A DNA stretch of 7,179 nucleotides from a virus. Below, in pieces: positions 3,192 to 7,179 of the stretch. A model generated the notes under the pieces. That model was not told the DNA's origin. It saw only the letters and a program-made list of their open reading frames with translations, and made no database searches. Made by a program: the position numbers and the translations under genes. The stretch is from the UHGV virus genome UHGV-0269045; one strand, 5' to 3'. How positions within the stretch are numbered: position 1 is the first letter of the stretch; every line of letters begins with the position of its first letter.

Positions 3192-3420
3192 CCTCCTCTA
3201 CCTCTCTACCTAATCATCTTTCATGTCAGTAATGGCGCGGCTTTCAGATGGGTAGAGGGCTTTCGTGGCCCTCTACCCATCCTCTACCCGCCCCTCACAA
3301 ACGATCTTAATCATGGTAGAAGAGGTAGAGAGGTTTTATTAGCCTTCTACCTAGCCCTCTACCCACTTATCATGTTGAATAATATGCGTTTATTTCATCC
3401 AGGTAGATGGGGTAGAGGGC
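3192..3420. repeat. Iteron array (about 11 copies of CTCTACC / GGTAGAG in both orientations), putative replication origin bound by the adjacent primase/helicase
   Basis: Heptamer copies at about 3196, 3204, 3251, 3271, 3283, 3315, 3324, 3345, 3357, 3402, 3411; includes a perfect 11-bp inverted repeat GGGTAGAGGGC (3250-3260) / GCCCTCTACCC (3268-3278); begins 12 nt after the primase stop; no ORF. Confidence 0.7.
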
Positions 3421-3432
3421 TTTTACAAAAAA

Positions 3433-5181
3433 TTATAAAAACGCGTCACAATCATCAGTTGTAATTGCGTTGGTCTGCGTTACTCCCTTAACTCTCCGCG
3501 TAATATATTCATGCCCGTAAACTTTCGCCGCTGGCTTCATGGCCTTGCTGAACTCAGCCACGTTTAGCGGTTTGCTCCTGCCTGCGTATGCCATAAACGC
3601 CAGATAGACGCGGTAAAGGCTGTTCCTGGTCGTATACTTCACTGAATCACCACCGCCCCCCATCATCAGGCCGCGCGCTTCCTCCAGAAAATTCAGGAAC
3701 TGGCAAAACTCAATAACCGGATCCGTCTGTTGCTTTATCGCCAGTGCTTCATCACCGTCGCGCTGTTCCAGTAATAAAGCCCGTGCCTTTTCAGGGTCGG
3801 CAAAATTAGCCAGCAAGCGACGGATAATTACGGGGATTTCAGCCGCGACCTTCTCCGGCAAATCCTTGTCTTTTTCGTCCTCCCTTACAATGTTGTCGAA
3901 CCGGAAAATCACCCGACGGCGTGACACACCTCCGGCCCGCTCGGTGAATATCATCGGGTTATTGTTGGTAGCCAGCACCACCGCCCTGATTACCGCCGTA
4001 AAACGCTTCTCATATTTCGGGTTTATTTCCACGGGGTCGCCGCCCGTGATTTTCTTGATGCCCGTTCCTTCGCCTGTATATTTCGGCTGGTCAGCCAGGA
4101 CGATAAGACGACTCCCGACAACCTGCGCACGTCCACCAGCATCATCAAGTGAGGTCATTTCAGCGCTTACCGTGTTCTGTTTCCCTGCCAGAAGGCTGGC
4201 TATGTGCGTGAATGTACTTTTACCGCTACCGCCCTCTCCGGTGGCCTCAATAAACATCTGCCAGTCGTACCGGTTCGCCATAATCATGTACAGCGCGGCA
4301 CATATACGCATCATCTTTCGCGGGTCTTTTCCGGCTGCGTGCTCAAGCCATTTATGAAAGTTTGGCGCGTTGTCGCGAATGTTCTCCCCTGGTGCTGGTG
4401 GCGTGTACTCAATGCCGTTGTGCGTGGTGATCCAGTTCTCCGGCGTGTGCGGGGAAAATTCCCCCGCTTTCAGGTCAAGCACACCATTGGCGAACGGCAG
4501 CAAATCGCCTGACGGCTCCCCCATTGGTTCGGCAATAACTTTTAACGCTTCCACGGCGTTATTGATTACGCGCTTGCTGAAAGTGGCCCTGTGCTCTGAA
4601 TAGATCACCACCATTTCGCGGCTCAGCTCCATTGTGCTGACCGGACACCATACCCCGCCGCGCCATACGTGAACTATTTCACTTTCAGGATGTACGCAAA
4701 CGCCATCAAATCGACCAGCAAGCAGCTGGGCGCGCTCACTGTCTGCCATTTGTGCCAGTTGCGTATTTTTCTGCTCCGGCATGGTAAGCCCTGCGGCAAT
4801 ATTTTCACGCTCAGCATTCAGATAGCGCCGCCAGTTTTCACACTTCTGGGCGTGCATTCCTTCGGGGTAAAAATTTGTGTCCTGAATATCTGCTGCCGCC
4901 AGCTTCTGACCAATCTTTTTGGTCTCCACCAAGTCCAGTTCTCCTGCCTGGTACAGCCTTACGCGTTTTTTTCCATCAGGAACAATTTGCAGTGCATCAA
5001 GTTCGGCAAGCTGATTTGGCCCAAGCCACACAGGAGGCACATTATCGCCGGATGCGGGGCCGTCCTGCTCCTGCCACTGTTTTGCATGTGCCCACGCATC
5101 ACTACCCGCGAAAATAATCACCTCTGTGTCTTTGTGTTTTATTCCGCGTGGCTGTTTTTTTACGTTCGGTGCCAGTTTCAT
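3433..5181 (-). CDS. Replicative primase/helicase (P4 alpha-like / PICI Pri-Rep type): N-terminal primase-like region plus SF3-type P-loop NTPase
   Basis: 582 aa; Walker A GEGGSGKST around residue 320; N-terminal VIIFAGSDAW ... RVRLYQAGE resembles a toprim-like primase region; ATG overlaps the upstream gene's stop in an ATGA arrangement; iterons directly downstream. Confidence 0.85.
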   Translation of the reverse strand: MKLAPNVKKQPRGIKHKDTEVIIFAGSDAWAHAKQWQEQDGPASGDNVPPVWLGPNQLAELDALQIVPDGKKRVRLYQAGELDLVETKKIGQKLAAADIQDTNFYPEGMHAQKCENWRRYLNAERENIAAGLTMPEQKNTQLAQMADSERAQLLAGRFDGVCVHPESEIVHVWRGGVWCPVSTMELSREMVVIYSEHRATFSKRVINNAVEALKVIAEPMGEPSGDLLPFANGVLDLKAGEFSPHTPENWITTHNGIEYTPPAPGENIRDNAPNFHKWLEHAAGKDPRKMMRICAALYMIMANRYDWQMFIEATGEGGSGKSTFTHIASLLAGKQNTVSAEMTSLDDAGGRAQVVGSRLIVLADQPKYTGEGTGIKKITGGDPVEINPKYEKRFTAVIRAVVLATNNNPMIFTERAGGVSRRRVIFRFDNIVREDEKDKDLPEKVAAEIPVIIRRLLANFADPEKARALLLEQRDGDEALAIKQQTDPVIEFCQFLNFLEEARGLMMGGGGDSVKYTTRNSLYRVYLAFMAYAGRSKPLNVAEFSKAMKPAAKVYGHEYITRRVKGVTQTNAITTDDCDAFL

Positions 5182-5477
5182 TTTTTACCCCTGAATACGT
5201 TAAGCATCTTTTTTATTTCCTGAATATTGGCGCGTGCTTTCTCCCTGCTGGTTGGTTTACTGCGGGGCGCTGCCTGTACCAGAGAAAAATCACGATCGAA
5301 CTGATAAACAGGCATAACGCAGTCATATTCGTAGCCTTCACGGCGGTAAGTGATGCGCCGTTCCTCCACGCCTTTAATCGTTACCGTGCCGCCGTACTGG
5401 TCGCGGTAAATATCCCCGCGCATGAATTTAGTGCGAGTTTTGCCGCTGGCAGTTAAGCCAGGATATTTAAGTTTCAT
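5178..5477 (-). CDS. Hypothetical protein (99 aa), translationally coupled to the primase gene
   Basis: ATG at 5477 with GGAGA 9 nt upstream; stop overlaps the primase ATG (ATGA); protein-like composition. Confidence 0.6.
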   Translation of the reverse strand: MKLKYPGLTASGKTRTKFMRGDIYRDQYGGTVTIKGVEERRITYRREGYEYDCVMPVYQFDRDFSLVQAAPRSKPTSREKARANIQEIKKMLNVFRGKK

Positions 5478-5482
5478 TATTT

Positions 5483-5725
5483 TTATTCTCCGATAGCGTG
5501 ACCTGATAAGCCGTTAATCTTCTCTGATATGCTCTCTATTTTGCTGGTTGAACTATCCAGTAATTCAGAAACGGCTAATATTAATCTTGCAGTTGATTCA
5601 TCGCGTTCATTATTCACCAGCGACTGAAGCCACATATTCATTACTTCGTTTGCTGCGTTGTTTAAAGATATTGCGCTGTTGGCAAGGCTTCTTAATTCAC
5701 TGGTCGCCAGTTTATTATTTTTCAT
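5483..5725 (-). CDS. Hypothetical protein (about 80 aa; start ambiguous between 5725 and 5743)
   Basis: Track ORF 5483..5746; the ATG at 5725 (MKNNKLATSELRSL...) overlaps the upstream gene's end by 11 nt; stop lies 5 nt before the next gene's ATG. Confidence 0.5.
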   Translation of the reverse strand: MKNNKLATSELRSLANSAISLNNAANEVMNMWLQSLVNNERDESTARLILAVSELLDSSTSKIESISEKINGLSGHAIGE

Positions 5726-5906
5726 AGCATTCGGCTCTCTCATCAATTAACCACAGCGCAACACTTTCTGACAGTTTTGCCAGAAGGCCAGCTAATGCGG
5801 ATATATCACCATCATTTAATTTATTAGGGTATACCTCAAGAAGGCGGCAAATAATTTCTGTCTGGTGCGCACGTTCAGCGGCTTCGTGTAATGTAATTTC
5901 CTTCAT
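5715..5906 (-). CDS. Hypothetical protein (63 aa)
   Basis: ATG at 5906 overlaps the stop of the upstream ORF (TAATG); protein-like composition (MKEITLHEAAERAHQTEIICRLLEVYPNKL...). Confidence 0.55.
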   Translation of the reverse strand: MKEITLHEAAERAHQTEIICRLLEVYPNKLNDGDISALAGLLAKLSESVALWLIDERAECYEK

Positions 5907-6091
5907 TAATGCACCTCTTTTAATTCATACACTGCTGAAATAATGACTTGTGATAAGCCATATTCTGATGATTCGCTTCTCACCGCAGCAATAGCCGTCT
6001 GAACATTAACAGCCTTCACATTCTGAGCGATACCAATTGTGTGGCCTAGTGGGTTAACAGCGCTGGCAAATACACGGAAGGTTTTAAGCAC
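5906..6091 (-). CDS. Hypothetical protein (about 61 aa from a GTG start), first gene of the primase operon
   Basis: The 95-aa track ORF has an implausible N-terminal 34 residues; the GTG at 6091 is preceded by GGGGG 6 nt upstream and gives VLKTFRVFASAVNPLGHTIG...ELKEVH. Start-site assignment is inferential. Confidence 0.4.
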   Translation of the reverse strand: MLKTFRVFASAVNPLGHTIGIAQNVKAVNVQTAIAAVRSESSEYGLSQVIISAVYELKEVH

Positions 6092-6097
6092 GGCACA

Positions 6098-6746
6098 CCC
6101 CCTGACGAATACGGGCGACAAAAATAAGATGTGCGTGCGGCAGCTGTGCGCGTGCTTCGCACTCAGTGGCAGCGGTAACGGTGAATATTGCAATGCTGTC
6201 TGTCAGGCACTGCATAAAGCGCCAGACAAAGTAAGGGCGTGCGGATACAGCCATGTGAAAGGCTCCCAGATGAATTTTAAGGAGTCTCGCTACTACGCTG
6301 TCAAACATGGTGGCGAGACGTAACAGGGTTGACAGACTGGTCATCTGGAAACCAGCGAGCACAAAGGCTCCCCCGTTACGCCCCGCCATAATGCGGGTAT
6401 GGGTAGGTTTACGGACACAAAAAAACCGCTTATCGGATGTGGGCGGCTGTCCGCCAGATGTATTCAGGCTGTCAAACCCGGTCGCCATGTGGGCGACGGG
6501 GGAAGCATACAGCCCCGTGATAATTTTTTGCAAGCGGTTTTTACGCATGATGTGACCCCTGACGAATACGAGCGGCAAATACAGCAACACAACCTGACGG
6601 GCAACGGCTACGCGCTTCGCGTTCCGTCCAGGCGGTTACGTGGATGATTTGAGATTCTCCGGCACTCAGTGCCAGAAAACGCCACACAAAGGCCGTTTGT
6701 GTGTACAAGGTGTGGTATATGATTTACGGCAACCATAACGGCTCCT
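6098..6746. repeat. Repeat-rich noncoding leader / regulatory region containing two diverged paralogous segments (about 6098-6266 and 6555-6745) that begin with an identical 15-mer
   Basis: CCCCTGACGAATACG at 6099-6113 and 6556-6570; further shared motifs GCACTCAGTG(G/C)CAG (6159-6172, 6662-6675), CTTCGC, CGGT(A/T)ACG, ACAAAGG and a terminal GGCTCC (6261, 6366, 6740). ORFs on both strands here have non-protein-like composition. Confidence 0.6.
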
Positions 6747-6766
6747 AGTTTACGTTGTTGGTTAGA

Positions 6767-6809
6767 AGCCCTGCGAGTGGTAATGACACTTGCGGGGCTT
6801 TGCTTTTTT
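6767..6809 (+). terminator. Rho-independent terminator on the plus strand
   Basis: AGCCCUGCGAGUG (6767-6779), loop GUAAUGA, CACUUGCGGGGCU (6787-6799): a 13-bp stem including two G-U pairs, followed by UUGCUUUUUU; no U-tract on the minus strand. Confidence 0.7.
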
Positions 6810-6825
6810 AAGTGCTCTTGTGTTA

Positions 6826-6870
6826 AGGTGACCACCTAACAATGGAAAGGCTAATTCAATAGGTGGCCAC
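6826..6870. promoter_or_regulatory. Putative operator: two palindromic GGTG(A/G)CCAC sites about 34 bp apart, overlapping the RBS/start of the Arc-like gene
   Basis: GGTGACCACC at 6827-6836 and GGTGGCCAC at 6862-6870 (GTGGCCAC is a perfect palindrome); the second overlaps the AGGTGG Shine-Dalgarno and abuts the TTG start. Confidence 0.5.
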
Positions 6871-7062
6871 TTGTCAACAATCAAACGCGATAAAAGCCCT
6901 AAAGGGGACGGGCAATCCCCACAATTCAGAATGCGAATTTCTCCAGAGCTAAAAGAGCAATTCGACAAAGAAGCACAGAGCGACGGCATAAGCCTAGCCA
7001 ACTGGCTTAAAGAGTTGGGGCGCACTGAACTAAAGCGGCGCGGCATAGAACCCAAAGGATAA
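6871..7062 (+). CDS. Arc/Mnt-family ribbon-helix-helix transcriptional repressor (63 aa), candidate master repressor of the element
   Basis: PQFRMRISPELKEQFDKEAQSDGISLANWLKELGRTELKRRG aligns by eye with P22 Arc (PQFNLRWPREVLDLVRKVAEENGRSVNSEIYQRVMESFKKEG). TTG start with AGGTGG 4 nt upstream; divergent from the minus-strand operons. Confidence 0.6.
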   Translation: MSTIKRDKSPKGDGQSPQFRMRISPELKEQFDKEAQSDGISLANWLKELGRTELKRRGIEPKG

Positions 7063-7119
7063 AAACTATCAGCGCCGTGGTGTGAGGTATTACGGCGCAT
7101 TGCTATGCAGGACAACACA

Positions 7120-7179
7120 ATGACCGATAAAGAATTGACCAAAACATTATCACCGGCACGGAAAAGACGGCGCAGAAAG
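7120..7179 (+). CDS. 5' end of an ORF running off the window (MTDKELTKTLSPARKRRRRK...); function unknown
   Basis: ATG at 7120 (an in-frame ATG also at 7105); open to the window end; only 20 codons visible. Confidence 0.3.
   Translation, partial: MTDKELTKTLSPARKRRRRK

Follow-up and report, generated by a model that had tools for sequence, protein, structure and literature searches.

The closest described relative of the locus considered here is prophage Sp7 of Escherichia coli O157:H7 Sakai, which is the same as O-island 51 (CP-933C) (PMC3378721) and which we infer from size and gene content to be the prototype capsid-forming phage-inducible chromosomal island (cf-PICI) EcCIEDL933 (bioRxiv 10.1101/2022.09.08.507074). 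In Sp7, a gene for an Icd-like protein (ECs1577) is followed by ECs1578 (61 amino acids), ECs1579 (63), ECs1580 (80), ECs1581 (99) and the replicase gene ECs1582. It has been reported that ECs1581, known as RgdR, and C1493, its orthologue in strain CFT073, activate LEE1 of the enterocyte effacement locus (LEE) as well as type III secretion and repress motility, that residue 20 matters for activity, and that DNA binding by the protein is weak and non-specific (PMC3378721). According to Fillol-Salom et al., RgdR is encoded by all E. coli PICIs analyzed (PMC6092414); our literature search found no mechanistic work on RgdR after 2012. Two other described systems are relevant to the region upstream of these genes. 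In phages P1 and P7, the C4 antisense RNA blocks translation of icd and thereby silences ant, and in Gifsy-1 the IsrK RNA acts via translation of orf45 (PMC12197685). Here we describe the corresponding region of UHGV virus genome UHGV-0269045, a stretch of 7,179 nucleotides that was analyzed as a whole (the window), in which four small open reading frames (ORFs; designated g1 to g4) precede the gene for a P4-family primase. We found that the four-gene block is the one already annotated in Sp7, that g4 corresponds to RgdR and is linked to the replicase gene in a manner conserved among satellites, and that a predicted C4/icd switch lies upstream of the block.

The order of genes (icd, the genes for 61, 63, 80 and 99 amino acids, and replicase) and all four junctions were the same in Sakai ECs1578–ECs1582 and in the window, and the Sakai proteins were 100, 95, 100 and 95% identical to g1, g2, g3 and g4, respectively. 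In contrast, the Sakai replicase is of the DUF927 type whereas that of the window is a P4-type primase with D5_N and DUF5906 domains, and only the first ~140 residues are common to the two. The window also differed from Sakai in an extra 457-bp cassette (comprising a1b1, C4 and icdA) and a frameshifted first icd, in the start codon of g1 (GTG, compared with ATG in ECs1578), and in its packaging module and integration site (tqsA in the window). A search against E. coli islands gave ~94% identity across 81% of the window length, and these islands carry annotated genes for primase, TerS and major capsid protein. The DNA of the block was 98% identical to that of O157:H7 strain SS TX 754-1, where it belongs to a complete capsid-forming satellite that has tqsA as its insertion site. 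Among 5426 complete E. coli genomes, 152 contained the block at a coverage of at least 80%. The DNA of the block had no match among 50,697 phage records. Based on the P4-family primase, the iterons, and the TerS and capsid genes of the 94%-identical island, the window is identified by sequence as carrying the early operon of a Gram-negative PICI or cf-PICI. An earlier note on this DNA, prepared from the letters alone, had presented the four genes as being of unknown function and as candidates for new activities; they are ECs1578–ECs1581 of the prototype cf-PICI, already annotated, one of them with published genetics, in an experimentally studied satellite, and are therefore not new.

Table 1. 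Position of the upstream C4/icd module, the four small genes and the primase gene in the window, listed from the upstream end of the minus strand.
Feature	Position	Strand	Details
icdB, second Icd-like ORF	6541-6708	minus	93% identical to single Sakai icd
Upstream C4 targets, a1b1	6419-6510	minus	RF03163, 46.8 vs gathering 46.7
C4 antisense RNA gene	6306-6393	minus	Rfam RF01695, 72.6 bits vs gathering 45, E 3.6e-13
Downstream C4 targets	6266-6306	minus	b2 GTTTGACAG 6298-6306; a2 CATCTGG 6266-6272, abuts icdA Shine-Dalgarno sequence
icdA, Icd-like ORF	6084-6254	minus	56 aa; NCBIfam NF033153, E 1.4e-13; directly upstream of g1
g1	5906-6091	minus	GTG start, 61 aa; phrog_3672 match 1-61 of 61
g2	5715-5906	minus	ATG start, 63 aa; phrog_1478
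g3	5483-5725	minus	ATG start, 80 aa; phrog_5796 and phrog_2196
g4, RgdR orthologue (DUF4222)	5178-5477	minus	ATG start, 99 aa
Primase/helicase, P4-family	3433-5181	minus	582 aa; D5_N, DUF5906, Pox_D5

Coordinates, PHROG matches and RefSeq annotation agreed with the four ORFs that the earlier note had placed upstream of the primase (Table 1), and the junctions were exactly those it had listed: g1 and g2 have 1 nt in common within TAATG, g2 and g3 overlap by 11 nt, a gap of 5 nt separates g3 from g4, and g4 is joined to the primase gene by ATGA. Its statement that these genes lead the operon did not hold, as they are preceded by two Icd-like ORFs and by a C4 RNA, and the start of g1 overlaps the stop of icdA by 8 nt. 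Several observations argue that the four ORFs are more than chance. PHROG matches ran end to end, each ORF to its own family, with E-values of 1e-31 to 1e-53; RefSeq annotation of relatives includes the same four genes; the junction geometry was found again in other loci; and dN/dS between divergent pairs was 0.18–0.33 for each of the four genes (for example, 0.25 for g1 against the relative L001, and 0.29–0.33 for g2), except for one g3 pair with a value of 0.64. Overlapping plus-strand ORFs, such as that at 5148–5456, were dismissed, as the family matches and annotation were all on the minus strand.

With regard to translation starts, g1 begins with GTG in the window and in the divergent L001 allele and with ATG in Sakai and in three other relatives (L002, L003 and L007). 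Alternative in-frame starts of g3 are present at ATG 5743 (86 amino acids) and TTG 5746 (87 amino acids); however, the start at 5725 is favored because L001 has only the 80-amino-acid start, preceded by a strong Shine-Dalgarno (SD) sequence. An SD-like sequence was found 5–11 nt ahead of each of the four starts, and the last codons of g3 (GGA GAA TAA, Gly-Glu-stop) double as the SD of g4. The earlier note had taken the junctions to imply obligate translational coupling; coupling is plausible, but its obligate character is not established because each start has its own SD-like sequence. A consensus scan of the minus strand of the block revealed no terminator-like site and one weak promoter-like match (9/12), which was below shuffle counts.

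The fourth gene product, g4, matched Pfam DUF4222 (PF13973) at 83.1 bits, where the cut-off is 27 (E 1e-23, profile positions 2–53 of 53), and the protein had the same features as published for ECs1581 (PMC3378721): 99 residues, isoelectric point (pI) 10.09, R20-G21-D22 and K35. It was 95% identical to ECs1581, with five substitutions (D10A, M33T, V42I, H45R and R61D), and 82% identical to C1493 of EcCICFT073; all three proteins share the length, the RGD at 20–22, K35 and a position directly upstream of the satellite replicase. On these matches, g4 is assigned as the RgdR orthologue. The host of the window may lack LEE. Thus, the view that none of the four proteins belongs to a recognized family stood for g1–g3 (Pfam, NCBIfam and PADLOC) and not for g4. 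Alignment profiles of g2 and g3 gave nothing below E 0.4 against the Protein Data Bank (PDB); structure prediction, which the earlier note had suggested, gave a confident core for g4 and was of no use for g1. In the AlphaFold2 model of g4, built from 26 sequences, residues 21–70 formed the core with a predicted local distance difference test score (pLDDT) of 85–90, and a five-stranded barrel was followed by a C-terminal helix (77–96). In this model RgdR has a Tudor/SH3-like barrel and, at its C-terminus, a basic helix, which is a new point. This model agrees with the earlier statement that the genes do not resemble AlpA or a Cro-type repressor, and no helix-turn-helix family in Pfam or NCBIfam matched g1–g4. 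A fold search of BFVD with the g4 model returned only uncharacterized SH3-like and DUF1653 proteins. As a single protein, g4 gave nothing below E 0.4 in a PDB sequence search, and a tblastn search of the phage records with g4 was also negative. A scan of genome contigs with the g4 alignment recovered only 2 loci, the derived patterns being too specific.

We found that rgdR is joined by ATGA to three kinds of replicase, namely a P4-type primase, a DUF927 protein and a RepA-family helicase. Residues 1 to ~140 of the window primase (nt 4760–5181) form an N-terminal domain, phrog_2850, and a further new point is that this N-domain is common to the P4-type, DUF927 and RepA satellite replicases, which are otherwise unrelated. 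Residues 1–55 were identical between the window and Sakai replicases, and the N-domain was 40% identical to that of the RepA type. In the E. coli loci examined, the N-domain always came directly after rgdR, and the two were contiguous at a coverage of at least 80% in about a fifth of the complete E. coli genomes (1041 of 5426). The ATGA linkage to the replicase was kept even for a DUF4222 protein with only 31% identity, in a 10.8-kb circular element. An exception was a short Klebsiella DUF4222 gene, which adjoins an antirepressor gene and not a replicase. We infer that RgdR is a fixed partner of the replicase in these satellites, whichever helicase or primase module comes next. That rgdR and the N-domain are contiguous in about a fifth of E. 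coli genomes, with any of the replicases, suggests that RgdR natively serves replication or gene expression of the satellite.

The region between icd and rgdR was mosaic across loci, with one to four ORFs. The window and Sakai have g1-g2-g3; CFT073 has a g2-like gene, two other small genes and a g3-like gene; the Shigella flexneri locus (L006) lacks relatives of g1 and g2 and has two other small genes plus a g3-like gene; E. albertii has a g1-like gene alone; and the 10.8-kb element has one 106-amino-acid gene. Its borders were the icd 3' end CGTATTCGTCAGGGG, which holds the SD for the next gene, and GGAGAATAAAAATAATG at the rgdR start, where Gly-Glu-stop of g3 serves as the rgdR SD. These observations suggested that g1–g3 lie in a slot where genes for small accessory proteins can be exchanged, with a conserved junction on either side. 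For example, the g3 alleles of CFT073-type islands were only 25–27% identical, and the 5-nt gap to rgdR was kept. Besides, g2 was a pseudogene in one strain.

Judged by dN/dS, all four genes are under purifying selection, and g1–g3 (about 0.25–0.33) encode conserved hypothetical proteins. No function was assigned to them in Pfam, NCBIfam, PHROGs or PADLOC, and a PDB sequence search with g3 as a single protein gave nothing below E 0.4. No PADLOC defense family matched g1–g4 at E up to 1, nor was a defense-related family found for them in Pfam or NCBIfam. When 1.84 billion representatives were searched exhaustively with phmmer, g1 gave only 6 hits. One protein from the g1 search (P0057, 247 amino acids), a fusion or else an artefact of assembly, was 50% identical to g1 over its last ~56 residues, which follow an unrelated N-terminal part. 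Both g2 (pI 4.8) and g3 (pI 5.1) are acidic and, from composition, probably helical. By hhalign, these two are not paralogues (probability 0.1%). Database relatives of g2 fell into 43 clusters, the named ones all from Escherichia or Shigella, and tblastn added relatives of 41–45% identity in Fels-1 (STM0898.6n, already annotated as ECs1579-like) and in Klebsiella phages, located in early-left operons just after the repressor gene. The Fels-1 gene and gp35 of Klebsiella phage KPP5665-2 resemble g2 in being small ORFs of tightly packed early operons. In contrast to g2, they lie downstream of a cI-type repressor gene in complete phages, and neither icd nor rgdR nor a replicase adjoins them.

Upstream of the block, the candidate C4 RNA lies between two sets of target sites (Table 1). 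In the a1b1 element, b1 is GTTTGACAG at 6469–6477 and a1 is CATCTGG at 6454–6460. Thus GTTTGACAG occurs twice on the minus strand, where 0.03 occurrences are expected by chance, and CATCTGG also twice, in each case flanking C4. As read from the alignment, the target sites on either side can pair with the C4 loop (CCAGAUG) and with the stretch CUGUCAA by complementarity. An isrK-like terminator hairpin with a run of seven U follows a1b1 (RF01394, 35.2 bits, under the gathering score). The putative C4 switch is complete and laid out as in immI of P1/P7, yet it stands before a satellite replication operon. As in P1/P7 immI (c4, icd, ant) and the isrK-orf45-anrP region of Gifsy-1, a C4-family RNA lies between complementary a and b sites, a target site abuts the ribosome-binding site of an Icd-like ORF, and the downstream genes overlap at their junctions. 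However, the P1/P7 and Gifsy-1 systems regulate an antirepressor or antiterminator, whereas the genes downstream in the window are g1–g4 and the replicase, and no Ant, AntA/B or KilA match to g1–g4 was found in Pfam, PHROGs or NCBIfam.

From an alternative in-frame ATG at 6308, icdA would encode 74 amino acids. In icdB, a deletion of 2 bp within a run of AC has cut the ORF off from an SD-preceded ATG at 6736 (window 6608–6736); the frame from this ATG gives a 42-amino-acid product, and the Icd-like ORF can start only at TTG 6708. Because the deletion leaves TTG 6708 as the only start, icdB is probably a pseudogene. The 457-bp insertion relative to Sakai (window 6084–6579; L004 3501–3700), which carries a1b1, C4 and icdA, has at its borders a 41-nt repeat that corresponds to the icd 3' end (6082–6122 and 6539–6579), and appears to have been exchanged at this conserved 3' end. 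Other E. coli have icd genes in arrays of two or three. C4 was also found in the E. albertii relative, and in none of the other loci examined.

Taken as a whole, we favor, with a probability of about 0.6, the explanation that the window carries a conserved PICI-type early operon in which RgdR is the replicase partner, g1–g3 are accessory, and the genes are coupled to C4/icd. Under this explanation, transcription would enter the operon through the Icd-like ORFs, and the C4 antisense RNA would pair with the sites over the icdA ribosome-binding site. Whether or not icdA is translated would then be signaled down the unbroken chain of stops and starts to the primase gene, by translational coupling and Rho polarity, as from icd to ant in P1 immI and from orf45 to anrP in Gifsy-1 (both models, for c4 and for isrK, are from PMC12197685). 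RgdR would belong to the core, as a partner of either the replicase or transcription, and g1–g3, rather than being core replication factors, would be dispensable and would modulate proteins of the host or helper. Several points weigh against this explanation. Most of the islands with the block (Sakai, CFT073 and L001–L006) had no C4 match, and in Sakai no C4-like RNA was seen even with a relaxed threshold, so that C4 control is not the general cause of the tight junctions. The SD-like sequence that each gene has of its own indicates that coupling may be partial. The accessory status of g1–g3 is suggested only by variable presence and the single pseudogenized g2, and the AlphaFold2 model of g1 (pLDDT 57.6) was too poor for a fold search.

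The earlier note had pointed to g1–g3, perhaps with g4, as new helper-sensing, derepression or anti-phage interference factors. A place in a satellite early operon is consistent with this, as are the small size of g1–g3, the acidity of g2 and g3 (pI 4.8–5.1, like many phage-encoded inhibitors), the very narrow distribution of g1, and a slot that varies among islands as an arms race predicts. We nevertheless consider it unlikely, since neither PADLOC nor the Pfam and NCBIfam searches linked the proteins to defense, induction of Gram-negative PICIs is assigned to AlpA (PMC6092414), immune hot spots are reported to flank the packaging module and not this site (bioRxiv 10.1101/2025.02.11.637232), g2 is found in ordinary temperate phages too, and g4 has another, published activity. 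A different proposal makes g1–g3 spacer ORFs, whose translation itself keeps ribosomes on the mRNA and so averts Rho termination before the replicase. The slot with one to four ORFs, the g2 pseudogene in one strain, and junctions that are kept while the contents differ would all fit; nonetheless, dN/dS of 0.25–0.33 in divergent pairs, the conservation of residues across the families and the retention of g2 in unrelated phage contexts make this proposal very improbable.

As for RgdR, it could be a core satellite adaptor whose Tudor-like domain acts on RNA polymerase (compare the C-terminal domains of UvrD/PcrA, and CarD) or on the replicase N-domain. Transcription would thereby be linked to origin firing, and the effects on the type III secretion system and motility would be by-products. 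Persistence of the ATGA link down to 31% identity is consistent with such an adaptor, as are pleiotropic effects and weak, non-specific DNA binding (PMC3378721). The absence of sequence motifs in common with the UvrD/PcrA or CarD domains and the short Klebsiella DUF4222 gene, which is beside an antirepressor gene instead of a replicase gene, argue against it, and we hold it to be doubtful. A joint version, in which RgdR is a core adaptor that licenses satellite replication or transcription and the slot holds exchangeable inhibitors of host or helper, is tentative and in our estimate improbable as well. RgdR might also counter H-NS-type silencing, either as an Sso7d-like non-specific DNA binder or by binding H-NS or Ler, so that AT-rich acquired DNA, the satellite included, is derepressed. 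Increased LEE1 expression, decreased motility and increased Congo-red binding resemble loss of H-NS (our interpretation of the phenotypes in PMC3378721), the protein is basic (pI 10.1) with a modeled SH3-like barrel and basic helix, and a short likeness to the Ler linker was noted by the authors (PMC3378721). However, Sso7d-type proteins were absent from the top structural matches and the idea is purely inferential, and we think it quite unlikely.

The analysis leaves two useful leads: the RgdR fold with its fixed replicase linkage, and the upstream C4/icd switch. RgdR influences colonization by enterohemorrhagic E. coli O157, and the linkage of rgdR to the replicase offers a concrete route to its mechanism. 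The predicted C4/icd switch ahead of a satellite replicase would be a further layer of control beside AlpA. As modulators of host or helper, g1–g3 are reasonable but unremarkable candidates.

Further analysis concerned the element as a whole. A 5' fragment of tqsA, which encodes an AI-2 (autoinducer 2) transporter, lies at 4–168 of the window on the plus strand and indicates that the island is inserted in this gene. The same tqsA site is used in SS TX 754-1, where the remaining half of tqsA adjoins the integrase gene. All chromosomal relatives with the block have integrase and AlpA genes at the left end; the window ends at 7179, short of that end. Just downstream of the primase stop, at 3200–3425, GGGTAGAGGGC-like iterons occur in at least 6 copies, some direct and some inverted, and this region is probably the replication origin of the satellite. 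In strain Jnd12 (L003, 1603–14101), a satellite was found to interrupt a lambdoid prophage, whose portal gene it splits in two; the related block of this satellite comprises g1, g2, a divergent g3 allele, rgdR and primase. The 10.8-kb element mentioned above (L014; NZ_CP148328.1, 10,790 bp, circular) was deposited as a plasmid, has the complete layout of a satellite, with int, alpA, YlcI, icd, the 106-amino-acid gene, DUF4222, primase and a capsid-protease fusion, and is probably an excised or replicating satellite.

The sequence between the divergent genes (6765–6877) contains a hairpin with a 15-bp stem (6765–6801) and an inverted repeat, GGTGACCACCTA at 6827–6838 and TAGGTGGCCAC at 6860–6870, which adjoins a minus-strand TTGACA; together these could be an operator or leader structure. 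Annotations of relatives disagree over this part (6762–7142 on the minus strand, 6871–7062 on the plus strand): RefSeq has a plus-strand YlcI/YnfO (Arc-like) gene, and Sakai and L008 have a same-strand hypothetical gene of 222–247 amino acids directly upstream of icd.

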